Part shown: positions 12,816 to 36,055 of the stretch, piece after piece | Layout: each line of letters starts with the position of its first letter | Position numbering within the stretch: position 1 is the stretch's first letter | Origin: an uncultured Bacilli bacterium | Lineage (GTDB): Bacteria > Bacillota_I > Bacilli_A > RF39 > UBA660 | Reading direction: 5' to 3' | Assembly (NCBI GenBank): GCA_947588685.1 | Contig: CANPYM010000003.1 | Location: forward strand, 5,587-69,586 | Length of the DNA stretch: 64,000 nucleotides | The notes under the pieces: model-generated | Told to the model about the DNA's origin: nothing | Seen by the model: the letters and a program-made list of their open reading frames with translations, nothing else | Databases searched by the model: none | Made by a program: the position numbers and the translations under genes

Positions 12816-12946
12816 AATGTCCTCCCTTCGCCTATATCTCGTATAGACTTGCTCCGTGTAAAAACCTGATATCGGTCAGTGTTTATATAACAACTTAACC
12901 GGGCGTATCAGCAACCTCACACATCAATGCACGCCACACATAATCC

Positions 12947-15034: not shown

Positions 15035-16006
15035 ATGAAAGTATCTGTATTAGGAACAGGTGCCTTTGGTTTAGCTTTAGCTTCCATTTTAAATGAAAAT
15101 GGCCATAGTGTTAAAATGTGGACCAAATTTGAAGAAGAAGCTAACTATTTAAATCAAACCCATACTAGTCCTAATTTAAAAAATTTTATTATTGATTCAA
15201 ATATTAAAATATCCACCAATTTTAAACAAACAGTCCGGGGAACTGAGTTAATTATCATTGCTGTTCCGGCTGGCTTTGTTGATGATATATCAAGACTATT
15301 AAAAAAAGAAATAAAAGAAAATCAACATGTTTGTATCGCCTCTAAAGGTATTGAGCAAAGTACTTGTCTTTTCGTCTATGATGTTTTTAAAAAATATATA
15401 ACTAGTGATCAAGTAGGTGTTATATCTGGTCCAAGTTTTGCCGTCGATGTTATCAAAAAAGTACCAATCGGTCTTTCTTTAGCTAGTAGTAATGAAACGA
15501 CAATTCGTATCATTAAAGAAGCTTTGCAAAATAAACACGTTAAATTGCGTGAGACCGATGATATTTTAGGCGTTGAAATATGTGGCAGCATTAAAAATGT
15601 TATCGCTATTGCGTCTGGTATGTTAGATGGAATGGGTTTACCAATATCGACCCAAGCTATGTTAATTACCGAATCTTTGAATGATATCAAAGAACTAATT
15701 AATACTTTAGGTGGCAATAAAATGACGATTCTATCATTTGCAGGTTTCGGCGATTTGCTTTTAACTTGTACAAGTACTAAAAGTAGAAACTTTTCGTTTG
15801 GACGCTTAATTGGTCAGAAGAAATCACAAGAAGAAATTAATAATTATATTGAAACAACAACTATTGAAGGTTTGTATACTCTAAAGTCGATATATAAACT
15901 ATTACAAGATAAGAAAGTTAAAATGCCAATTATTGATTTAATTAATGATATCGTATATAATAACAAACCAGTAACTGATTTACTAGAATTTTTGGTGGTG
16001 AAATAA
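15035..16006 (+). CDS. gpsA: NAD(P)H-dependent glycerol-3-phosphate dehydrogenase
   Basis: 323 aa. N-terminal Rossmann motif VLGTGAFGLALA plus GpsA-like GPSFA and KNVIAIASG segments. Confidence 0.93.
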   Translation: MKVSVLGTGAFGLALASILNENGHSVKMWTKFEEEANYLNQTHTSPNLKNFIIDSNIKISTNFKQTVRGTELIIIAVPAGFVDDISRLLKKEIKENQHVCIASKGIEQSTCLFVYDVFKKYITSDQVGVISGPSFAVDVIKKVPIGLSLASSNETTIRIIKEALQNKHVKLRETDDILGVEICGSIKNVIAIASGMLDGMGLPISTQAMLITESLNDIKELINTLGGNKMTILSFAGFGDLLLTCTSTKSRNFSFGRLIGQKKSQEEINNYIETTTIEGLYTLKSIYKLLQDKKVKMPIIDLINDIVYNNKPVTDLLEFLVVK

Positions 16007-17100
16007 TGGCGGAAGGAAGATATAATAGTTATGTTATTATGGGTAAAGGCGGCGAAATGCCAATTGTTATTGATTGGACCAAAGTAAAAGCTTTTGCGAG
16101 TCTTAAGAAAAAAAAGTATCGTTTAGAAGGCATTGATTTTTTTACAACGCATTATGCAAATAGAGAAAGTCTTATTGCTGAACTTATTAATGCTGAGGCT
16201 CTCTCACCAGCTGCTGCTAGAGGTATTAAACTTCAAATATACCAGGTCAAGCAAGATAAAAAAAGTCCTGATGGCGTAGCCTTTAAACCAAATGGTAGCT
16301 TACAATTTGGACTTGCTTATAAAGCTTATTTGCCATTACTTAAGTATGATAATGTCGTTATTAGAACTCTTCAGGAGCATCTAGATGATTACACTTTCAT
16401 CAATGCTTTAGTTACTAAATATAAAAAAGAAGGTCCGTATAATGATTTTATCTTTGATGCCTTAGAAAATAAAATTCACAAAATAGAAAATAGCCTACAC
16501 TACAATTTTGAAGGGGTTGAAAAACAGAGAAACGTCCTTCGTTCATACTACTATCGTTATAATCAAATGCGGGTCGTAAGAGGTCTACTTGATAGTATGC
16601 TAGCTTATGCTAGTCATAAAACCCATAGTGATGGTGAGGTAAGAAGTGCTTACAACAATGCAAGAGAATTTTTCTTAAGAATTAAATATCAAGTTACATT
16701 TGCCGAAGATGATATTGACGATGCGACCAAACTATCTTTTAAAACAAATAAAGATGGTTCAAGAGCTGTTAAGTATTTAGAGTTTCATAATTTTATTATG
16801 TGGCTCGGTAGTCAACTTGATTTAGAATTGGGTGAATATGCCCAAATAAATGATCAGATTGTCTACCCATTAGCTAGTAAAAAGAAAAAAATAAAAAAAC
16901 GTGAAAAGAGAAAAGAAGTTGATGGTCAAACATCATTGTTTGATAATCCTCCTTATGAAAACGAGGAACCCTTAACAGGCGATATCGATGAACAGATGTC
17001 GCTATTCCCTAGTCACCATGAATCATTTAGCGATATGGCTATTGATGATAATGATGAATTAGATCATCAGGGAAAACAACATATTAAAACAAAAAAATAA
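16006..17100 (+). CDS. Hypothetical protein with a basic patch and an acidic tail carrying two QxSLF motifs
   Basis: 364 aa. Its ATG overlaps the gpsA stop (TAATG). The body matches no family I recognise. The tail reads KKKKIKKREKRKEVDGQTSLFDNPP...DEQMSLFPSHH. Confidence 0.6.
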   Translation: MAEGRYNSYVIMGKGGEMPIVIDWTKVKAFASLKKKKYRLEGIDFFTTHYANRESLIAELINAEALSPAAARGIKLQIYQVKQDKKSPDGVAFKPNGSLQFGLAYKAYLPLLKYDNVVIRTLQEHLDDYTFINALVTKYKKEGPYNDFIFDALENKIHKIENSLHYNFEGVEKQRNVLRSYYYRYNQMRVVRGLLDSMLAYASHKTHSDGEVRSAYNNAREFFLRIKYQVTFAEDDIDDATKLSFKTNKDGSRAVKYLEFHNFIMWLGSQLDLELGEYAQINDQIVYPLASKKKKIKKREKRKEVDGQTSLFDNPPYENEEPLTGDIDEQMSLFPSHHESFSDMAIDDNDELDHQGKQHIKTKK

Positions 17101-18136: not shown

Positions 18137-18195
18137 TTTCTACACCTCCTTATGGTCTTTGGCTTCATTGAAGCAAGGAGTAATTAAATTACTCG
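18137..18195 (-). promoter_or_regulatory. Candidate structured 5' leader of rpsF-ssb-rpsR (possible S6:S18 autoregulatory element)
   Basis: The minus-strand leader has hairpins GAGTAAT-tta-ATTACTC and GCTTC-aat-GAAGC. A CTCCTT segment could pair with the AAGGAG Shine-Dalgarno. Confidence 0.3.
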
Positions 18196-18201
18196 CTTAA
18201 G

Positions 18202-18230
18202 ATTATAACAAATAAAAGGCGATTTGTAAA
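18202..18230 (-). promoter_or_regulatory. Sigma-A promoter of rpsF operon (TTTACA-N17-TATAAT)
   Basis: On the minus strand, TTTACA (18230..18225), a 17-nt spacer ending in TGt, then TATAAT (18207..18202). Confidence 0.6.
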
Positions 18231-18238
18231 TAAATATC

Positions 18239-18267
18239 TTTACTTTTATAGTTAATTTTATTATAAT
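18239..18267 (+). promoter_or_regulatory. Sigma-A promoter of ORF 18288 (TTTACT-N17-TATAAT)
   Basis: TTTACT at 18239..18244 and TATAAT at 18262..18267. Divergent from the rpsF promoter. Confidence 0.5.
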
Positions 18268-18287
18268 ACGCTTCACAGGTGATGTAT

Positions 18288-18818
18288 ATGGCAGTTGCGC
18301 CACAAATATTCGTAAGAAATGATCCATTATATGATTTTAAAAAGGGATTAAATAAGGCTCATCCTAAATGTCAGCTTTTTATCCATAATGATGTTAATGG
18401 GCCATTAAAAATTTCCAGTGGACGCCTTTACCGTCAAGAAGTTAAAGAAAAATTTTTGACTGATGGAACCATTTCTTTAGAACGCTATAGCCGGGAGCCA
18501 GCTTTTATTGTATGGCGTGAGGCCGTTTTAACATTAGATGATCATATTTCTTTTGATTTCAATTTAGAAGATGCTAGTTTTTTTATCTATGACTTATCAT
18601 ATGGCTATGAAAGACGATTTGAGATTCATACAAGTTTAGAAAGTACAGCTATCTATGAAAAGATTATTACTTATCTTTTAGAAAGAGAAAAACTAGAAGG
18701 AACCTTAAATAGTATTCGTTTTAGTAGTCTAAGAACCTTAGAACAAGTAATTCAAAAGCAACATCAAAAAATTGTTATGGATACTAAAACAGGAAAAGAA
18801 AAAGTATATAAAATATAA
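18288..18818 (+). CDS. Hypothetical protein
   Basis: The track ORF starts at a GTG (18279). The ATG at 18288 (MAVAPQIF) lies 5 nt after AGGTGA. No recognisable motif. Confidence 0.5.
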   Translation: MAVAPQIFVRNDPLYDFKKGLNKAHPKCQLFIHNDVNGPLKISSGRLYRQEVKEKFLTDGTISLERYSREPAFIVWREAVLTLDDHISFDFNLEDASFFIYDLSYGYERRFEIHTSLESTAIYEKIITYLLEREKLEGTLNSIRFSSLRTLEQVIQKQHQKIVMDTKTGKEKVYKI

Positions 18819-18851
18819 GCGACAATTGTTAATGATTGTCGCTTTTGTTTT
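18817..18851. terminator. Bidirectional terminator (10-bp stem)
   Basis: AAGCGACAAT-tgttaatg-ATTGTCGCTT followed by a T-rich run. Shared by ORF 18288 (+) and the cassette (-). Confidence 0.75.
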
Positions 18852-18856
18852 AACTT

Positions 18857-19867
18857 TTAACTCACTAAAATCCATTCTTGAAAATAAGCAATTTTCGTAT
18901 GACAATAATCACACATACCTTTATTAATGTCAATTGATGCCCCACAATTAGAACACATAATGATATTAACATCGCCATCAAGATTAACTTGCTGATTAAG
19001 ATTTTGAACTAACGTATAGGTTGATACCATTGTTTTAGGCACAATTTTACCATCAATATAATAGATAACTCTAATTCTAACTTGAACATCGATGAAATGG
19101 CGATTATCTTTAATGTAATCCTTAAAAGAGACATAATCTAAAATGTCATAATCAATTACATCTTCTTTTGTATAATAATATTTTCTTATTTCATAATTAA
19201 AATTGTTAAAAAATTTCTTTTTATCAATATTGGTCCTTTGCCAAAATAGTTGTTGTTCTTTATTTTGTTTAGCTTTATATCTTTTAATCGGTCCTAAAAT
19301 AATATAAGCATCAGCTATATAGAATAAGTAATATAGTACTAATGAAAGGATAGCCGCATAAACAAATATTTTAATAATATCAATATCATTAAAAGTTCTA
19401 GATGTCGTTTTAATAAATATATAACTTAAAATAAGGCTTACTATAATATCGATAATACCTGTTATAACACGATAAATATTACTATGTAGAACAGCATCAT
19501 AATGATATTTACCGCCTAAGTCTTTATCAACATAGTCAATATTATAATATGTTTTACAATAAGGGCAGCCATCAAGAACATCTTTAACTAATGATCGCAT
19601 TCCACAGTTTGGACACACGTATTCTTCATCTTGGTTAGTAGTAATGAAGGTATATTCTATTCTTGAATCAAATTCCTTTTCGGTATGTTTTAAAACATTA
19701 TTGACATAATATTCTTTACCACATCTAATACCATTTTTAATGTTAACATCGCTAGGGCTTTGACTATCACGAATAACGATGTCATTACCGACGATATATT
19801 TAGTTTTAATACGAATATTATAACGTTTTAATTTTTCTTTATGAAAGGCATCTGATACCATAGACAT
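18857..19867 (-). CDS. Membrane protein with N- and C-terminal zinc ribbons (cassette gene 4)
   Basis: 336 aa. CPNC...CPYC near aa 85-105, two TM helices (IYRVITGIIDIIVSLILSYIFI and IFVYAAILSLVLYYLFYIADAYIIL), and a C-terminal domain ending CSNC...CDYC. GGAGGATT RBS lies within the 9-nt gap after gene 3. Confidence 0.65.
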   Translation of the reverse strand: MSMVSDAFHKEKLKRYNIRIKTKYIVGNDIVIRDSQSPSDVNIKNGIRCGKEYYVNNVLKHTEKEFDSRIEYTFITTNQDEEYVCPNCGMRSLVKDVLDGCPYCKTYYNIDYVDKDLGGKYHYDAVLHSNIYRVITGIIDIIVSLILSYIFIKTTSRTFNDIDIIKIFVYAAILSLVLYYLFYIADAYIILGPIKRYKAKQNKEQQLFWQRTNIDKKKFFNNFNYEIRKYYYTKEDVIDYDILDYVSFKDYIKDNRHFIDVQVRIRVIYYIDGKIVPKTMVSTYTLVQNLNQQVNLDGDVNIIMCSNCGASIDINKGMCDYCHTKIAYFQEWILVS

Positions 19868-19876
19868 CTAATCCTC

Positions 19877-20230
19877 CTACCTATTGTTGTTATTATTGTT
19901 ATTATTATTATTGTTGTTATTTGATGAAGAGCCTCCTGAAGATGATCCACTTGAAGCTACATAATGAGGAATAATGATGAGACTCGCTCCCGTTAAATCC
20001 AATCCATCAATTGATGCGTCAATACAAGGAGTATTAATAACATGAAGGACTTGATTATTATATATAAATGATATATTATCTTCCCCACCATGAACAACCC
20101 CATCAGGATTTTTTTCTATAAAGTTATAAATAAGCTCTAGTTCATCAGCTGTCAAATTATAATGTTTGGTAAGATCAATACATCTTTTTTTCCTAATTAG
20201 TTCCTCATAGGTTTCTGGTTCTTTATTCAT
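19877..20230 (-). CDS. 117-aa protein with a Ser/Gly + Asn13 C-terminal tail (cassette gene 3)
   Basis: Its ATG overlaps the rSAM stop (ATGA). About 90 aa of ordinary sequence are followed by SSGSSSGGSSS-N13-R. Confidence 0.6.
   Translation of the reverse strand: MNKEPETYEELIRKKRCIDLTKHYNLTADELELIYNFIEKNPDGVVHGGEDNISFIYNNQVLHVINTPCIDASIDGLDLTGASLIIIPHYVASSGSSSGGSSSNNNNNNNNNNNNNR
19883..19921 (-). repeat. (AAY)13 trinucleotide run encoding Asn13
   Basis: The plus strand reads att gtt gtt att att gtt att att att att gtt gtt att, which is 13 consecutive Asn codons on the minus strand. Confidence 0.9.
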
Positions 20231-21975
20231 TTAATCATCTCCTTATTGATATAGTAAAACTCCATATTTTGAAAAGGTAAATTAATTGCTTGCAAATGAT
20301 AGTAAGCATTATTTTTTTGTTTAGTATAATGATAATCTCTTAAAGCAGAGGTCGTAAAAAAGATATTATTAGGGTTATCCAAAGATAAATGGTCTTTATA
20401 TTCATAAATTAAATTAGTTATATCATAGGCATAATAATCTTCTTTATCAGATGGGATATTATCTAAAACCCCTTTATATATTTGATGCGTCATAATATGT
20501 TGTTGCTTAGTTCTATTTTCATCACCATATGTTACCATATTCCCACTTAATAACATAATGTATAAAGAATTGTTAATTGGGTAATCACATTCAGCATCAA
20601 GAAGGCTTTTTTTCATATATATCATAACTTTACTTTTTAAAGTTAAATAAATAATTTCACGTTTGTTCTTTAAGATTTGTGACGCTAAAGGATAACATAC
20701 ATCGTCAACATTCAAGATAAAGACACTATCATCATAAATATATTTTAGTTTAGGATCACTATTAATAATTTCTTCTAGACTAGGATATTCTTGTCCTTTG
20801 GGTTTAGGCATATAATTGTCTAATTTAGTTACACGCATCTTTTTTAGATATGTATAGACATTATCTTCATTATATTCATCAACTTTATATCCCCGGTCTT
20901 TATATAATTGCTGTTGCAATTTGCAAGTATAACTTTGATTAGTTTGATAAGTATTTTTGACAAAAGGGCAGCCTGTTTTACATAGATATAAATAGCCACA
21001 TTTAGCGCATTCTTCATTAAATGGTTTTCTATTATGATTAATAAATATCTTTTCTCTAGCTGTCTTTAATATTTCTTCAACACTATTTTGATAAATATTG
21101 CCATAATAATAATCTTTATTCTTTTGGCCTCTTACGCAAGAATATATATCGCCGTTCTTCTCAAGTAAGAAAAACTTCTCACCACAATTATCACAATTGG
21201 TACAATATTCTGGTCCAAACTCATCAAACCAAGCTCCGTTAACACCAGCATCTAAGTCTGTTCCATCAAACTCTTGATGCATTCTTTGATAAAACTTAAC
21301 CTGCTCATCTTCACTCATATGATGAAGAAGACCATTCGAATTGTAGTCAAAACCAATCATAAAATTGAAGTCATTCATATCCAAACAAGTATTTTTATGT
21401 AGGAAAATGATATCTTCAATAATTTGATCAAGATGTTGATAATGTTCCTTAAAAATGGTGGCAGATACTTTCTTCTTATTAGGAATATCTTTAAGTAGTT
21501 CAATATTTTCTAGTATTTTATCTAGGGTTTTTCCTCCACCTTTTGTAAGACGATATTCATCATGTAATGAAAGGGGTAAATCAAGACTACCTGAGATAGA
21601 AACATTAAACTCTTTTATCGTATCAATATGTTTATCTAATTGATACATATTCGTTTTAATATGAGGTCTACCAACTTTAAAGCCCCCAGCTGTTATAATA
21701 TCTTTATTCATATCATAATAAGAGCTTATATAGGCAATAAGATTATGAAAATCTTCTTTGCTAAGAGTTGTTACCTCCCCACCATGAAGGGAAATGTTAA
21801 AAGGTATAACATTACTCTCTTTGAATTTGGAAACAGCATACTTTAAAGTATCTAAGGCTTTATAAGATGTTTGTTCATCTTTAGTATTATCTTCTAAGTA
21901 ACAATACCTGCAAGCCATATTACAAGCCATCGTCGGTACATATAAAAGATGAATATATTTATAATCACTATTCAT
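20227..21975 (-). CDS. Radical SAM / SPASM-domain enzyme with an unassigned ~220-aa C-terminal domain (cassette gene 2)
   Basis: 582 aa. CNMACRYC (CX3CX2C) at aa 18-25, verified in the DNA at 21901..21924. GGE motif SLHGGEV. SPASM cysteines CX15(GX4)C at aa 264-280 and CAKCGYLYLCKTGC (CX2CX5CX3C) at aa 323-336, plus C351. Aa ~360-582 match nothing I recognise. Confidence 0.85.
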   Translation of the reverse strand: MNSDYKYIHLLYVPTMACNMACRYCYLEDNTKDEQTSYKALDTLKYAVSKFKESNVIPFNISLHGGEVTTLSKEDFHNLIAYISSYYDMNKDIITAGGFKVGRPHIKTNMYQLDKHIDTIKEFNVSISGSLDLPLSLHDEYRLTKGGGKTLDKILENIELLKDIPNKKKVSATIFKEHYQHLDQIIEDIIFLHKNTCLDMNDFNFMIGFDYNSNGLLHHMSEDEQVKFYQRMHQEFDGTDLDAGVNGAWFDEFGPEYCTNCDNCGEKFFLLEKNGDIYSCVRGQKNKDYYYGNIYQNSVEEILKTAREKIFINHNRKPFNEECAKCGYLYLCKTGCPFVKNTYQTNQSYTCKLQQQLYKDRGYKVDEYNEDNVYTYLKKMRVTKLDNYMPKPKGQEYPSLEEIINSDPKLKYIYDDSVFILNVDDVCYPLASQILKNKREIIYLTLKSKVMIYMKKSLLDAECDYPINNSLYIMLLSGNMVTYGDENRTKQQHIMTHQIYKGVLDNIPSDKEDYYAYDITNLIYEYKDHLSLDNPNNIFFTTSALRDYHYTKQKNNAYYHLQAINLPFQNMEFYYINKEMIK

Positions 21976-23869
21976 AATTACCCCTAAAAGTCATTATCAT
22001 ATTCGTTAAAGGACTTAAGTTACTATCATTTATATTAGAAGATGTTGAAACATTAGAATTATTATCTAGATTATTACCTGTATTAATATTATCATTGCTA
22101 TTAATGTTACTATTTTGATTACTACTTATATTACTATTTACGTTGCTATTTATATTGCTATTTAAATTACTATTGTTATTGTTACCATAATTACTATCAT
22201 AGCTATAGTCATAATCACCTGTATAAATTAGGGTTGAACCTTTCGGTGTATATTTGTGAATGTTAGTTGGGCTTTCTTTAAAAGCACGATAGTTGTATTC
22301 TGTCTCATATGGTAGATAAATACTATATAAGTTATCACATGACCTAAAGGCCGAAGAGCCAATTTCTTTCAATTTACTAGTCGGATTAATTTTAACTTCT
22401 TTTAAAGAGGAACAACCATAGAAAGCATGGCCACCAATCCGAACCACTTTATCAGGTATTTCTACCTTTTCAAGCGAGCGACAATTTTCAAATGTATTAC
22501 CGCGGATTTCCTTTATGTTTGATGGAATATGAATGTTCTTTAATGAAAAACAGTTTCTAAAAGCCTCGCCACCTATGTAAGTTACACTATCAGGAATGTT
22601 TATTTCTTTTAAATTATAATCATTAGCGAAAGCCCCACCACGAATTTGAATCATAGTCTCAGGTAGTTCAACATTCTTTAAGAAAAACATATTAGAAAAA
22701 GCATTACCTCTTAAGCCTATTACCGGTTTTCCTTTATACTCTTCTGGCACTTTAACGGTTGTAAAATTCGTTAAACCAAAAGTGTAGAATCTTAAGACAT
22801 AGCCATCGTCATTGTTATCATAAATAGTATGAGGGTTATAAAAGATTACAAGGGGAAGTAAAATAGCTAATAATGTTGCTGTTATAAGTAAAGGATAACT
22901 ATTATTAGGAACTAACTGTTCTTTAGTACTCATAACAATATTAGATATTTTCTCACTTGGCCTAGCTTTTACCTGCTTAACTAAATATTTAATAAACTTC
23001 ATTCGCCGCATTAAAATGCCATAAATAACAAGAATTATTAGACCTATAAAATAAGTTAAAAATGGAAAATGGAAGAAAATTAAAGATATATAAATGAAAA
23101 TTAAGAACGCAAAAATAAATCCTAATATTTTCTTTCTCTTAATCATTTCTCTAGGAAGCATTTTAGGTTGTTCTGTTAACCCAACTTTAACTAGCTCTCT
23201 TTTAATAAACTCCTCAGTTAAAGCCTTTTCTGATAAATTATACATAGGATCAAAACTACTAGCATCGACAATTTGTCTAGGGGCTATAGTAGCGTCAGGG
23301 TTAGGAGTAACGATAACATTATCTCCGGAAAAAGCTTTGCCACAATTAGTACAAAACTTATCACTGATTTTCATCACATTTTCACAATTAGCGCAAGTCA
23401 AAATAACGCTATTTAAGGTTTGAGGAGCATTAGAAGTTTGATTCACACTTGTTAATGTATTAGTTAAATTGCCATTAGGAGTATTTTGAGTAAAATTCAA
23501 ATTACTCGTATTTGTAGCTAGTGTAGCGCTATTTTTCTTTTGAGCTATTGCTAATGCAATTGGCACAATAATACCGCCACCAATAAAGATTGATAGCCCA
23601 TCGATGACTTCAGTAGTAGATGCGTTTATCAAATTACCAATAAATAATAATATTACTCTAGCAACACATAGCCATACGAATAGACGTCCTTCGTCATTAG
23701 GACGAATAGCGCCAGCAAGGGGTTCTAAAAAGATAGGACATACAAATATACTAAGTATGCCCTCTACAAAAAAGGCCTCGTCAAAATCATAACTTCTAAA
23801 TATGAAACCAACTGTTAATAATATAATCATTGACAATATTGTCGCTATCCAACTGGAAATTTTCTTCAT
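21968..23869 (-). CDS. Polytopic membrane protein with zinc ribbon, BspA-type leucine-rich repeats and an Asn/Ser-rich tail (cassette gene 1)
   Basis: 633 aa. N-terminal TM bundle, then CANC...CTNCGK, more TM helices, then ~6 LRR units (IGGEAFRNCFSLKNIHIPSNIKEIRGNTFENCRSLEKVEIPDKV...), then an NSNxNSN tail. Its last 8 nt overlap the rSAM start. Confidence 0.7.
   Translation of the reverse strand: MKKISSWIATILSMIILLTVGFIFRSYDFDEAFFVEGILSIFVCPIFLEPLAGAIRPNDEGRLFVWLCVARVILLFIGNLINASTTEVIDGLSIFIGGGIIVPIALAIAQKKNSATLATNTSNLNFTQNTPNGNLTNTLTSVNQTSNAPQTLNSVILTCANCENVMKISDKFCTNCGKAFSGDNVIVTPNPDATIAPRQIVDASSFDPMYNLSEKALTEEFIKRELVKVGLTEQPKMLPREMIKRKKILGFIFAFLIFIYISLIFFHFPFLTYFIGLIILVIYGILMRRMKFIKYLVKQVKARPSEKISNIVMSTKEQLVPNNSYPLLITATLLAILLPLVIFYNPHTIYDNNDDGYVLRFYTFGLTNFTTVKVPEEYKGKPVIGLRGNAFSNMFFLKNVELPETMIQIRGGAFANDYNLKEINIPDSVTYIGGEAFRNCFSLKNIHIPSNIKEIRGNTFENCRSLEKVEIPDKVVRIGGHAFYGCSSLKEVKINPTSKLKEIGSSAFRSCDNLYSIYLPYETEYNYRAFKESPTNIHKYTPKGSTLIYTGDYDYSYDSNYGNNNNSNLNSNINSNVNSNISSNQNSNINSNDNINTGNNLDNNSNVSTSSNINDSNLSPLTNMIMTFRGNYE
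22019..22192 (-). repeat. Degenerate short tandem repeats encoding the Asn/Ser-rich tail
   Basis: Encodes NNNNSNLNSNINSNVNSNISSNQNSNINSNDNINTGNNLDNNSNVSTSSNINDSN. The DNA shows imperfect ~12-nt periodicity (ttgctattta / ttactattt variants). Confidence 0.7.
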
Positions 23870-23904
23870 ACAACCACCATCTCCTAATATTCCTACTATA
23901 AATC

Positions 23905-23913
23905 ATTATATCA
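23905..23913 (-). promoter_or_regulatory. Extended -10 element (TGaTATAAT) upstream of the cassette
   Basis: Minus-strand TGATATAAT about 36 nt upstream of the gene 1 ATG. The -35 is weak (TTAGAG/TAGAGT). Confidence 0.45.
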
Positions 23914-23941
23914 TAACTTTATAAAATACTCTAAAAAAGAC

Positions 23942-23971
23942 ATCAAAAAACTCACTAATTTAGTGAGTTTA
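23942..23971 (-). terminator. Rho-independent terminator of ychF
   Basis: AAACTCACTA-att-TAGTGAGTTT. The stem overlaps the ychF stop and a T-run follows on the minus strand. Confidence 0.75.
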
Positions 23972-25118: not shown

Positions 25119-26756
25119 CTATTTATATACTAAATATTTAGCTAATTCATCGTTGACAACTTCTCTTATCGCTTCTAAATTATAGCGACGATCACGAATG
25201 TTGTCATATAGTTCTATTACGTCTTTCGATACAAAAGCTGGATAATCATATTCTTTTGGTAGTTGATACTCACTATAAGTCTTATAAGGAGCCAAATCAT
25301 ATTTTTCAGCTAAATAGGTTAAGAAGACATCTAACTTTTGACTATATAAAGCATTATAATTATCGATTGTAATATGATATCCACGGGTTTGAAGTAAAGC
25401 AAAGAAGCCAACACTCATTCGTTGTTCGAAGAGACGAATTAAATACATATTATAATCGATTGGAACATCCTTAGTCTCATTTAAAACTAATAGATTAATA
25501 AAGAATAAATCCGTAAGCTGGATGTTAGCGTAATCAACAACTATATTGATAAAACTCTGTATATCAAGATCTGGATTAATTTCCAAGGCTTTTTCATATA
25601 AATCACTAGGAAATAGGCCTAACATTAAATCATATGCCACGAGCATTTTAACAACATCCACGAAGTCCTCATTACTAAAGACCGGAAATTGTTCCAATAG
25701 AGCAATCGGATTTTTAGATAGACTATATCTTAAAAAGCCATCTTGTTCATAGTCATCTTGTAAGCTTAAAACAAAACGGATATTATCTAAAATTTCTCTT
25801 TCTTCAAAACTAGCTAAAAGACCGCGATCGGTTAAACTCATCGCATATTCTTCCGCTGTTACTTCCTCAATAAAATTAAACATTAAGGTATCATCTTCAT
25901 AATAATTTATACCCGTAAAAGTTGTATACACATCAGCTTGGTATTCATCAGGACAAGCAGCCGCTAAAAAATGTTTAAACTCGTGCATATTAATCGGCTT
26001 AAAACTTTCTAAAGATGGGTATTTGCTATCACTTGTTAAGATCCAACTGATGTCTTCAAAAGATGTGGCAGCTACAACCCCCAAAGTTTCACTATCCGCA
26101 TTATCACGATACGTAAAAGCTATGTGCGATAATAGGCAAGCAAGATGAGCCATATCATAATCCAGGTATCTTTTTTTCGTTTCTAAAACAATTTCTTTTA
26201 ATTGATTTAAAACAATATTAATATCGTCTAAAGACATATTTTTAATACCCTTATACTTATCATGATTTTCTTTTTTAACTAAATTTAAGCTATCAAAAAG
26301 AACAAGTAAAGTTCCATTAGCTTTAATTTTAAGAGCAAGGTTAGTCCAATTGATAGTATCTTTAGAACGATTATAAAAAAGCATATTATCATGCTTCATA
26401 ACTAATCCTGTCACATTAGGATCAGTTAAAGCATCAAAAAGATAATCATCAATGTTTAATGTATTAATGATATCATCAGAAACATAGCCCGTTGCTTTAA
26501 TTTTTTGGGCCCAATCTTTGGCAGTAGTTAAATCAGTACCTGTCTTTTCATCAAGAGATAAAACAATATCATCTACTGTCGCTATTTTATTAGGAGCACG
26601 ATGAAAATAAGGATAATCACTATCTTCCATCTGTTGTGCGACTAATTTGATATTTTCAGAACTTCTAAAATGCATTTTACATAAAGTAAGGCCTACATTA
26701 CCTGTCATAATTACCGCTAAAAGTCCTGCATAAAAGCGAATCTTATGTTTCATCAT
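25119..26756 (-). CDS. Membrane-anchored or secreted hypothetical protein with an HEXXH motif
   Basis: 545 aa. N-terminal hydrophobic helix (FYAGLLAVIMTGNVGLTLC). HEFKH at aa 258-262, verified in the DNA at 25971..25985. Otherwise unrecognised. Confidence 0.5.
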   Translation of the reverse strand: MMKHKIRFYAGLLAVIMTGNVGLTLCKMHFRSSENIKLVAQQMEDSDYPYFHRAPNKIATVDDIVLSLDEKTGTDLTTAKDWAQKIKATGYVSDDIINTLNIDDYLFDALTDPNVTGLVMKHDNMLFYNRSKDTINWTNLALKIKANGTLLVLFDSLNLVKKENHDKYKGIKNMSLDDINIVLNQLKEIVLETKKRYLDYDMAHLACLLSHIAFTYRDNADSETLGVVAATSFEDISWILTSDSKYPSLESFKPINMHEFKHFLAAACPDEYQADVYTTFTGINYYEDDTLMFNFIEEVTAEEYAMSLTDRGLLASFEEREILDNIRFVLSLQDDYEQDGFLRYSLSKNPIALLEQFPVFSNEDFVDVVKMLVAYDLMLGLFPSDLYEKALEINPDLDIQSFINIVVDYANIQLTDLFFINLLVLNETKDVPIDYNMYLIRLFEQRMSVGFFALLQTRGYHITIDNYNALYSQKLDVFLTYLAEKYDLAPYKTYSEYQLPKEYDYPAFVSKDVIELYDNIRDRRYNLEAIREVVNDELAKYLVYK

Positions 26757-35949: not shown

Positions 35950-36055
35950 CTTCTTCGCTCCTTCCGCCATGACTTTGATAAGTCATAGAAAACTAATTCC
36001 TACCTAGTTTATCAAATTATTTTATAATTTGCAAGTATTTAAGAGGTATTTTACA

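Follow-up and report, generated by a model that had tools for sequence, protein, structure and literature searches.

A mobile radical SAM/SPASM cassette whose enzyme probably modifies the poly-asparagine tail of a small companion protein

Introduction

Radical S-adenosylmethionine (SAM) maturases with a SPASM domain are a major source of new peptide chemistry, and both this enzyme class and the logic of encoding an enzyme next to its substrate are already known. Here we describe a four-gene cassette with such an enzyme, located between ychF and rpsF in a 64,000-nucleotide stretch of DNA from an uncultured Bacilli bacterium (contig CANPYM010000003.1, positions 5,587 to 69,586; this whole stretch is called the window below). 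The second gene of the cassette (gene 2) encodes the radical SAM/SPASM enzyme, and the third (gene 3) encodes a small protein that ends in a run of asparagines. We consider it probable that the cassette is a mobile posttranslational modification system in which the gene 2 enzyme modifies the C-terminal poly-Asn tail of the gene 3 protein. New in comparison with described systems would be the homopolymeric Asn target, an extra domain in the enzyme, the membrane partners, and an association with phage tail fibers.

The best structural and partial hidden Markov model (HMM) match of the gene 2 enzyme is the anaerobic sulfatase-maturating enzyme (anSME; TIGR03942; PDB entries 4k36 to 4k39). Neither enzyme has the N-terminal recognition element (RRE) of maturases of ribosomally synthesized and posttranslationally modified peptides (RiPPs), and anSME acts on a protein, at Ser or Cys. 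However, the gene 2 enzyme has an additional C-terminal domain of ~220 amino acids (aa) and a poly-Asn-tailed partner, and there is no sulfatase or C/S-x-P-x-R motif nearby. The maturases of darobactin and dynobactin (DarE, DarW, and DynA) resemble the present case in combining a single enzyme with a short C-terminal core. They have no RRE, and they cross-link aromatic and Lys residues in short cores. All three are among the top partial HMM matches of gene 2 (DynA, 92 bits; DarW, 73 bits; DarE, 67 bits), which stays far below their cut-offs of 450 to 650 bits. In contrast to theirs, the putative core here is homopolymeric Asn without aromatic residues, and the enzyme has an added domain.

A SPASM maturase beside a target protein made of simple repeats is also found in the GrrM/OscB (Gly-rich repeats), HxsB (His-Xaa-Ser), CXXX-repeat, and CefB (Cys at every fifth position) systems. 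Their models match gene 2 weakly and in part, with alignments that stop by about residue 364 and leave the C-terminal domain uncovered; no cut-off is reached, and none of these systems targets an Asn homopolymer. The epimerases of proteusins, a further group for comparison, belong to a different, non-SPASM radical SAM family. Their cores comprise ~48 residues of mixed sequence, hydrophobic ones included, whereas the present locus has an Asn run and no methyltransferase. Proteusins of the polytheonamide and aeronamide type are Asn-rich ribosomal peptides with long leaders and repeated radical SAM action, in which D-Asn is formed and then N-methylated (PMC9060474). In the mycofactocin (MftC) and pyrroloquinoline quinone (PqqE) pathways, a SPASM radical SAM enzyme acts on residues at the extreme C terminus of a ribosomal peptide to give a product that serves inside the cell and not as an exported antibiotic, as we propose here. 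Both pathways need a separate RRE protein (MftB or PqqD), a protease, and further tailoring enzymes. TIGR03962 scores gene 2 at 28.6, against a cut-off of 265.

We found no curated model for the system in NCBIfam 20.0, Pfam, or PADLOC. A search of the literature, which did not extend to subscription-only sources, for links between radical SAM, SPASM, or RiPPs and poly-asparagine or 'NNNNNNNN' returned nothing relevant.

Results and Discussion

The cassette consists of four open reading frames (ORFs), all on the minus strand, that form one coupled unit between ychF and rpsF. Its genes and the parts of them that matter for the argument are the following, in window coordinates.

21968-23869, minus strand: gene 1, 633 aa
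20227-21975, minus strand: gene 2, 582 aa
21412..21942, minus strand: radical SAM core of gene 2, residues 12-188 (PF04055; C18x3C22x2C25 and a GGE motif)
20923..21204, minus strand: SPASM region of gene 2, residues 258-351 (TIGR04085; eight invariant Cys)
20230..20883, minus strand: C-terminal domain of gene 2, residues ~365-582 (family-specific, matches no family)
19877-20230, minus strand: gene 3, 117 aa
19883..19921, minus strand: run of 13 Asn codons in gene 3 (AAT and AAC mixed; GGSSS before it, only Arg and the stop after it)
18857-19867, minus strand: gene 4, 336 aa

Which of these genes make up the system? Clustering of the ORFs around the 60 loci that encode a full-length gene 2 homolog left a single universal partner outside prophages, a small protein ending in poly-Asn (median length, 125 aa). 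By this comparison, the conserved core of the system is two genes, gene 2 and gene 3, and not four. The preliminary description of the locus had taken the four genes as one set. They do occur together in 18 other loci, and genes 1 to 3 in 28, a recurrence which argues that the arrangement is not due to chance; as the core of the system, however, the set of four did not stand.

Full-length homologs of gene 2 are sporadically distributed. They occur in metagenome-assembled genomes (MAGs) of gut Bacilli and 'Tenericutes', in Clostridia, Bacteroidales, Slackia, and Archangium, in beta- and gammaproteobacteria (Undibacterium, Chitinilyticum, Rhodoferax, Maricurvus, Pseudoalteromonas, Psychromonas, Beggiatoa, and Thiomargarita), in a cable-bacterium MAG, and in Campylobacter and Helicobacter prophages; among plasmid records, a full-length homolog was found only in one from Campylobacter coli. 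The pair of genes 2 and 3 is present in Bacilli, Clostridia, Bacteroidales, Actinomycetota, Myxococcota, and beta- and gammaproteobacteria. Around the proteobacterial loci we saw no conserved gene theme, and the neighbors appear unrelated by eye (a kinase, a TonB receptor, a peptidase, and GGDEF proteins). A contig labelled Staphylococcus chromogenes M79.2 (L061) carries the enzyme together with a 77-aa ORF ending in GGS-N13-G; its GC content of 58% is far from staphylococcal, and the contig is probably a contamination or mislabelled.

The gene 3 protein is predicted to be cytoplasmic and consists of a conserved N-terminal domain of ~90 aa, a Ser/Gly linker, and the poly-Asn tail, so that its C terminus in the window reads SSGSSSGGSSS-N13-R. 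The preliminary description had listed the Asn run without comment, and this run is the key feature of the locus. No other run of five or more Asn occurs in any of the six frames of the window. Members of the gene 3 family in Bacilli are 45 to 60% identical overall, yet GGSSS-N(n) is near-invariant. Around the 60 enzyme loci, runs of at least six Asn were found in 52 of 2,420 six-frame ORFs, one per locus. These ORFs are always on the strand of the enzyme and nearly always next to its gene, which they follow or directly precede; the distance of the run from the C terminus is 0 to 8 residues. A protein with the N-terminal domain and a Ser-poly-Asn tail adjoins the enzyme in ~53 of the 60 loci. 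The control loci, which comprised generic radical SAM/SPASM loci and 80 related ychF loci from AT-rich Bacilli, contained no run of at least six Asn in 3,488 ORFs (123 loci, 1.56 Mb).

The 53 poly-Asn proteins share the general form (S/T)-Asn(5-28)-X. Their runs comprise 5 to 28 Asn residues (median, 12), preceded by Ser in 45 proteins, Thr in 4, and Cys in 1 (hence S, T, or C in 50 of 53), and the last residue of the protein is Gly in 26, Arg in 17, and Asn in 6.

Could the tail be functionless low complexity, caused by AT-rich DNA or slippage, next to an orphan anSME-like enzyme whose substrate is encoded elsewhere? The window has a GC content of 33%, anSME is the best structural and HMM neighbor of gene 2, and the run length is polymorphic between strains: the loci L002, L003, and L004 encode an identical enzyme (P0043), and in-frame changes within their mixed AAT/AAC tract result in runs of 13 versus 16 Asn. 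However, loci with a poly-Asn pair range from 22 to 71% GC, and the run is kept at 59 to 71% GC in Archangium, Rhodocyclaceae, and Slackia, with AAT and AAC codons mixed even in the run of Archangium (69% GC). The persistence of the tail at this GC content with mixed codons points to selection on the protein and not to base composition. The low-complexity explanation is likewise at odds with the constant C-terminal position of the tail, its strand and its proximity to the enzyme, with its absence from controls that include the 80 loci of related AT-rich Bacilli, and with the low anSME score and the lack of a sulfatase described below. Because the tail is kept at high GC and is absent from the control loci, this explanation is effectively excluded.

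Judged by comparative sequence analysis, the tail is under selection and specific to the neighborhood of the enzyme, and it is most likely the enzyme's target. The earlier suggestion that the radical SAM enzyme modifies one of its co-encoded partners gains support and would narrow to gene 3, since, across phyla, the Ser-poly-Asn tail is the sole feature conserved beside the enzyme. The Asn/Ser-rich tail of gene 1 lacks such conservation.

Compared without their tails, Firmicute-type and proteobacterial-type proteins still have homologous N-terminal domains (hhalign probability, 97.3%; E = 2.5e-11), and the HMMs of the two types hit each other reciprocally. The start of the gene 3 homolog in Firmicute-type loci ranges from 7 nt inside the enzyme gene to 37 nt past its stop. 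No Pfam or NCBIfam family covers gene 3 or its counterparts, and a profile search of the PDB with the gene 3 family matched only maltose-binding protein fusions with an engineered SSS-N10 linker. The Asn10 linker of these fusions is a man-made hydrophilic spacer, and it resembles window positions 19883-19930. Some poly-Asn proteins from Proteobacteria and Archangium (L031, L036, L037, L039, L048, L057, and L059) contain a conserved Gly-rich hydrophobic stretch, LVMLGTAGLxLTMPG, between the N-terminal domain and the tail; it could be a membrane-interacting segment, and the Bacilli proteins are without it.

Profile searches place the gene 2 product among the radical SAM enzymes (PF04055, 45.6 bits against a cut-off of 29.5; C18, C22, and C25 invariant in the alignment) and the SPASM proteins (TIGR04085, 42.8 bits against 27; PF13186, 27.5 against 21.5). 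They agree with the CX3CX2C motif, the complete set of SPASM cysteines, and the ~220-aa C-terminal domain outside known families that had been noted previously. Eight SPASM cysteines are invariant across phyla (C258, C264, C280, C323, C326, C332, C336, and C351), which makes 3 + 8 invariant cysteines overall. The spacing of the eight matches that of the cysteines in the two fully ligated auxiliary clusters of anSMEcpe, for which the residue numbers were reportedly given by Goldman and colleagues in 2013. An AlphaFold2 model of gene 2 (predicted local distance difference test score [pLDDT], 87) has anSMEcpe (4k36) as its best PDB match (Foldseek E = 1e-13), followed by CteB, SuiB, and ChlB, and all of them align with the first ~380 residues only. 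Gene 2 is thus predicted to encode a cytoplasmic radical SAM enzyme with an anSME-like core and two fully cysteine-ligated auxiliary clusters, and this enzyme is the conserved catalytic core of the system.

Does a characterized family claim this enzyme? The highest score with an NCBIfam equivalog model is 95.5 bits for TIGR03942 (anSME), which has a cut-off of 349.45, and homologs from other phyla reach 66 to 82 bits with the same model. The four cassette genes and the neighbors scanned contain no Sulfatase domain, there is no partner with C/S-x-P/A-x-R, and no sulfatase-like cluster recurs in the ~60 neighborhoods. The score, the extra C-terminal domain, and the lack of a sulfatase rule out that gene 2 is an anSME. 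Besides the SPASM domain model, gene 2 has 41 NCBIfam matches, all of them 3- to 25-fold below the cut-off, with DynA, DarE/W, PapB, AmcB, HxsB, GrrM/OscB, CefB, XyeB, SCIFF, and MftC among the families concerned. The homologs from Undibacterium, from the contig labelled Staphylococcus chromogenes, and from a Campylobacter phage fail the cut-offs in the same way. The top partial matches are all peptide or protein maturases. Over its full length, gene 2 matches a single family, the phage family phrog_1802, a 'radical SAM domain-containing protein' without an assigned function (E = 1e-43; residues 13-574 of 582). Hence, the view that no characterized radical SAM family and no named system accounts for the locus has held: gene 2 reaches no NCBIfam equivalog cut-off and has no full-length PADLOC match, and genes 3 and 4 have no Pfam or NCBIfam family.

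A search of 1.84 billion clustered proteins yielded 102 representatives of the gene 2 C-terminal domain; all complete proteins among them are radical SAM enzymes of ~590 to 620 aa, and the remainder are fragments. The invariant residues of the domain include a polar cluster (N469, Y483, G484, R488, K490, H493, T542, H549, Y550, and N556). Modeled alone with AlphaFold2, the domain reaches a pLDDT of 88.9 and a predicted template modeling (TM) score of 0.81. Foldseek returned nothing significant for it in the PDB and BFVD (query-normalized TM-scores of ≤0.35; root mean square deviation of ~20 Å for the matches with the lowest E-values), and phmmer found no sequence match in the PDB.

Might gene 3 encode the precursor of a classical secreted RiPP, with a leader of ~90 aa and a modified Asn-rich peptide that is cleaved and exported, as a bioactive product, by proteins encoded elsewhere? 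Gene 3 and its counterparts do have the layout of a leader and a C-terminal core and lie adjacent to the enzyme, as RiPP precursors do. The nearest HMM neighbors of the enzyme are RiPP maturases (DynA, PapB, DarE/W, and AmcB), and SPASM maturases with repeat-motif precursors are established (GrrM/OscB, HxsB, CXXX-repeat, and CefB). However, we found no PqqD/RRE, leader protease, or exporter (transporter) family in the cassette and none conserved across the ~60 neighborhoods. Moreover, the precursor gene lies downstream of the enzyme gene and is translationally coupled to it, from which roughly 1:1 expression is expected, and phage structural proteins appear to bear the same kind of tail. We consider a secreted RiPP unlikely and prefer the reading in which gene 2 modifies the tail of the gene 3 protein itself.

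The phage proteins come from a variant of the system in which the enzyme lies in a tail-fiber module. Campylobacter phage CAM-P21 (L005, MW462221, 6235-11132) encodes a gene 2 homolog that is 34% identical over 98% of the length and has kept the C-terminal domain. The genes are ordered fiber (phrog_1162), phrog_10241, enzyme, DUF1353 tail assembly chaperone, a second fiber-like protein, and sheath, and the enzyme also lies within the tail-fiber module in L051, L054, L058, L060, L086, and L091 (Campylobacter and Helicobacter prophages). C. jejuni 414 has two such prophage copies. The fibers encoded two genes upstream of the enzyme have C termini that are otherwise divergent and end in GSTNNNNY, GSSNNNNY, SCNNNNGG, MGNNF, TGNNF, or MGNNS. 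The link between these Asn-containing fiber ends and the enzyme is only suggestive. The prophage loci contain no gene 3 homolog, and in BLASTP comparisons the phage neighbors show no similarity to genes 1, 3, and 4. Homology between the gene 3 domain and the C termini of phage fibers was considered as well, and the comparison was not significant. Literature searches on phages, Campylobacter, and tail fibers returned nothing relevant. Two large viral contigs from IMG/VR, of 258 kb and 94 kb (L089 and L090), have small ORFs or a 1000-aa protein ending in ...NNNGNNNNSCSGGW, ...FSNNNNNNLAGNV, or ...HGNNNS, located 450 to 800 nt upstream of the enzyme gene and followed by an ORF of ~145 aa and then the enzyme.

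Homologs in prophages, a sporadic distribution across phyla in varied contexts, and a distinct base composition would also fit a role in anti-phage defense or abortive infection. In such a system, sensing or activation would fall to the enzyme and the poly-Asn protein, and the small membrane proteins would act as the effectors. A small protein with two or three transmembrane helices is indeed a constant third component, though unrelated in sequence between lineages. A known defense system was rejected when PADLOC gave just a partial match to the viperin core: the prokaryotic viperin (pVip) model PDLC02903 covers residues 15-98 only, within the radical SAM core, with 30.8 bits, and NF038283 scores 33.7 against 180. 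The prophage gene lies inside the tail-fiber module by Asn-tailed fibers and not in a moron or defense position, and the identity of 75 to 82% between the enzymes of many Bacilli MAGs is unusually stable for a defense gene. We think a defense function quite improbable. This alternative concerns the cellular role, and it is compatible with genes 2 and 3 encoding an enzyme-substrate pair.

The remaining two genes of the cassette encode membrane proteins. The gene 1 product has ~6 transmembrane helices, a CxxC...CxxC ribbon at residues 159-176 that is predicted to be cytosolic, and BspA-type leucine-rich repeats (LRRs) that are predicted to be extracellular (LRR_5, PF13306; E = 4.4e-65; 217.8 bits against 27.7; three stretches). 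In Firmicutes and Bacteroidota, 28 loci have a gene 1 homolog upstream of the enzyme, and by this distribution gene 1 is a lineage-specific partner. The gene 4 product has a zinc ribbon near residue 84, two transmembrane helices, and a second zinc ribbon near residue 304, with both ribbons predicted to be cytosolic. This architecture is identical in 17 of 17 complete homologs. Gene 4 is present in 18 of the 28 Firmicute-type loci and missing from one subclade, a pattern that marks it as a lineage-specific partner, too. No Pfam or NCBIfam family covers it. In Proteobacteria, its place is taken by a membrane protein of ~270 aa or ~155 aa, unrelated to gene 4 and to each other; homology of gene 4 to these partners was rejected (hhalign probability, <1%). 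Genes 1 and 4 share only the zinc-ribbon module (probability, 90%; 28 columns). Family searches and transmembrane prediction thus bore out the product features originally read from the four genes, namely the LRRs, the zinc ribbons, the radical SAM/SPASM enzyme, and the gene 3 tail.

Might the enzyme modify the surface LRR protein of gene 1, for instance its Asn/Ser-rich tail, with gene 3 as a chaperone or adaptor? Gene 1 lies immediately upstream of gene 2 and overlaps it by 8 nt, 28 loci of Firmicutes and Bacteroidota encode an LRR_5 protein ahead of the enzyme, and the gene 1 tail in the window is rich in Asn and Ser. However, such a tail is found in few homologs only, most of which end in ...AFKESPTxIxYY, and there is no LRR protein beside the enzyme in Proteobacteria, Myxococcota, and prophages. 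The predicted topology also puts the LRRs and the tail outside the cell, where they would be beyond the reach of a cytoplasmic Fe-S enzyme after export. This makes gene 1 a very unlikely substrate, and we return to gene 3 as the presumed target.

How could the enzyme work? We hypothesize that the gene 2 enzyme acts on the translationally coupled gene 3 product, in which the folded domain of ~90 aa would be the carrier or leader and the (S/T)-Asn(n)-X tail the core. The C-terminal domain of gene 2 may stand in for the missing RRE and dock the domain or the tail of gene 3. The radical SAM site would then abstract a hydrogen atom at the Ser-Asn junction, or do so repeatedly from Asn residues along the tail; oxidation, cross-linking, and epimerization are candidate outcomes. 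Both auxiliary clusters are predicted to be fully ligated by cysteine, and the putative substrate contains no Cys; these features fit anSME-type oxidation or carbon-centered chemistry better than thioether formation. After modification, the tail would probably remain attached to its protein, which would act at the membrane or envelope together with membrane partners specific to each lineage; in the window, these would be the surface LRR protein of gene 1 and the double zinc-ribbon protein of gene 4. A broader proposal, which we make more tentatively and regard as possible but somewhat short of probable, is that of an undescribed posttranslational modification, in which a dedicated radical SAM/SPASM family, defined by its C-terminal domain, processes the C-terminal Asn tails of small carrier proteins in at least six phyla, possibly repeatedly, and in which the prophages of Campylobacter and Helicobacter apply this enzyme to the distal C-terminal tips of their tail fibers.

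Several points weigh against these proposals. Adjacency by itself is no proof of an enzyme-substrate relation. The variable length of the Asn run (5 to 28 residues, and 13 versus 16 beside an identical enzyme) is more in line with a spacer or an iterative substrate than with one defined cross-link. With no RRE, protease, or exporter, the locus is not a textbook RiPP cluster. The prophage fibers have only 2 to 4 Asn residues and no detectable homology to the gene 3 domain, and position and composition are what links them to the enzyme. Finally, the membrane partners are unrelated between lineages, so that no conclusion on the cellular role can be carried over between lineages.

If our interpretation is correct, the Asn homopolymer would be a new class of substrate and the reaction probably a new one, and the family-specific C-terminal domain would provide a new route to substrate recognition, given that there is no RRE. 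The system is common in uncultured Bacilli of the human and animal gut, where it lies beside a surface LRR protein, suggesting a role in the cell envelope or in the interaction with the host. The prophage version suggests radical chemistry on the tips of phage tail fibers, which would be new for phage biology and for the determination of host range. The question should be of high interest to specialists in radical SAM enzymes, RiPPs, and phages, and it can be tested in cultured carriers: Chitinilyticum aquatile DSM 21506, Undibacterium squillarum KCTC 23917, Maricurvus nonylphenolicus KU41E, Pseudoalteromonas luteoviolacea IPB1, Psychromonas aquimarina ATCC BAA-1526, and Campylobacter jejuni 414 with phage CAM-P21.

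Genomic context of the cassette

The cassette is real and mobile. For comparison we used 80 related metagenome loci with a ychF gene 68 to 84% identical to that of the window. None of the 80 carries the cassette, and in many of them ychF is directly followed by rpsF-ssb-rpsR. At the ychF site, the cassette was found in just one further locus (L001), with an enzyme that is 82% identical. In all other Firmicute-type loci the block has unrelated surroundings, such as an acyltransferase on one side and a polysaccharide deacetylase on the other. These comparisons support the original proposal that the ~5-kb block is an accessory insertion. The block was also thought to be more AT-rich than its flanks, and windowed analysis gave a GC content of 29.2%, compared with 32.8% for the window; none of the other 5-kb stretches is as low (0 of 196).

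The four genes are closely coupled. Genes 1 and 2 overlap by 8 nt and genes 2 and 3 by 4 nt (ATGA), and a gap of 9 nt (gaggattag) separates genes 3 and 4, with a GGAGG Shine-Dalgarno sequence that begins with the last G of the TAG stop codon of gene 3. The signals around the unit are as follows.

23970-23948, minus strand: terminator of ychF, preceding the cassette promoter
23905..23913, minus strand: cassette promoter, an extended -10 element (TGaTATAAT) read straight from the sequence, downstream of the ychF terminator
18817-18844, both strands: bidirectional intrinsic terminator, shared by the cassette and the convergent 179-aa ORF at 18279-18818

All coordinates and spacings of the coupled minus-strand genes agree with the preliminary description, as do the cassette's own extended -10 element and the single terminator, given there as 18817..18851 and found here to be bidirectional. 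The promoter was not listed by a consensus promoter scan because it has no good -35 element. An Rfam scan found no regulatory RNA near the cassette.

The ychF-rpsF junction (window 23870-23968 and 18137-18856) is a variable slot in this lineage, which may be empty (in many relatives), hold the cassette and the convergent 179-aa ORF (window and L001), or, as in the closest relative (L113, 7683-11818), hold adhE and two other ORFs. The 179-aa ORF (18279-18818, plus strand) has no family match in Pfam, NCBIfam, PADLOC, and PHROGs, and a counterpart beside the cassette was found in L001 only, with 63% identity. Two further ORFs flank conserved genes in the window, one of 364 aa (16006-17100, plus strand) and one of 545 aa (25119-26756, minus strand); neither gave a match above threshold in the four libraries scanned, and the 545-aa ORF has a counterpart in L001 that is 57% identical. 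The Rfam matches in the window are an S10-Clostridia leader (12828-12935, minus strand) and an L31-Firmicutes leader (35958-35988, minus strand), ribosomal-protein leaders that are consistent with a Bacillota chromosome.

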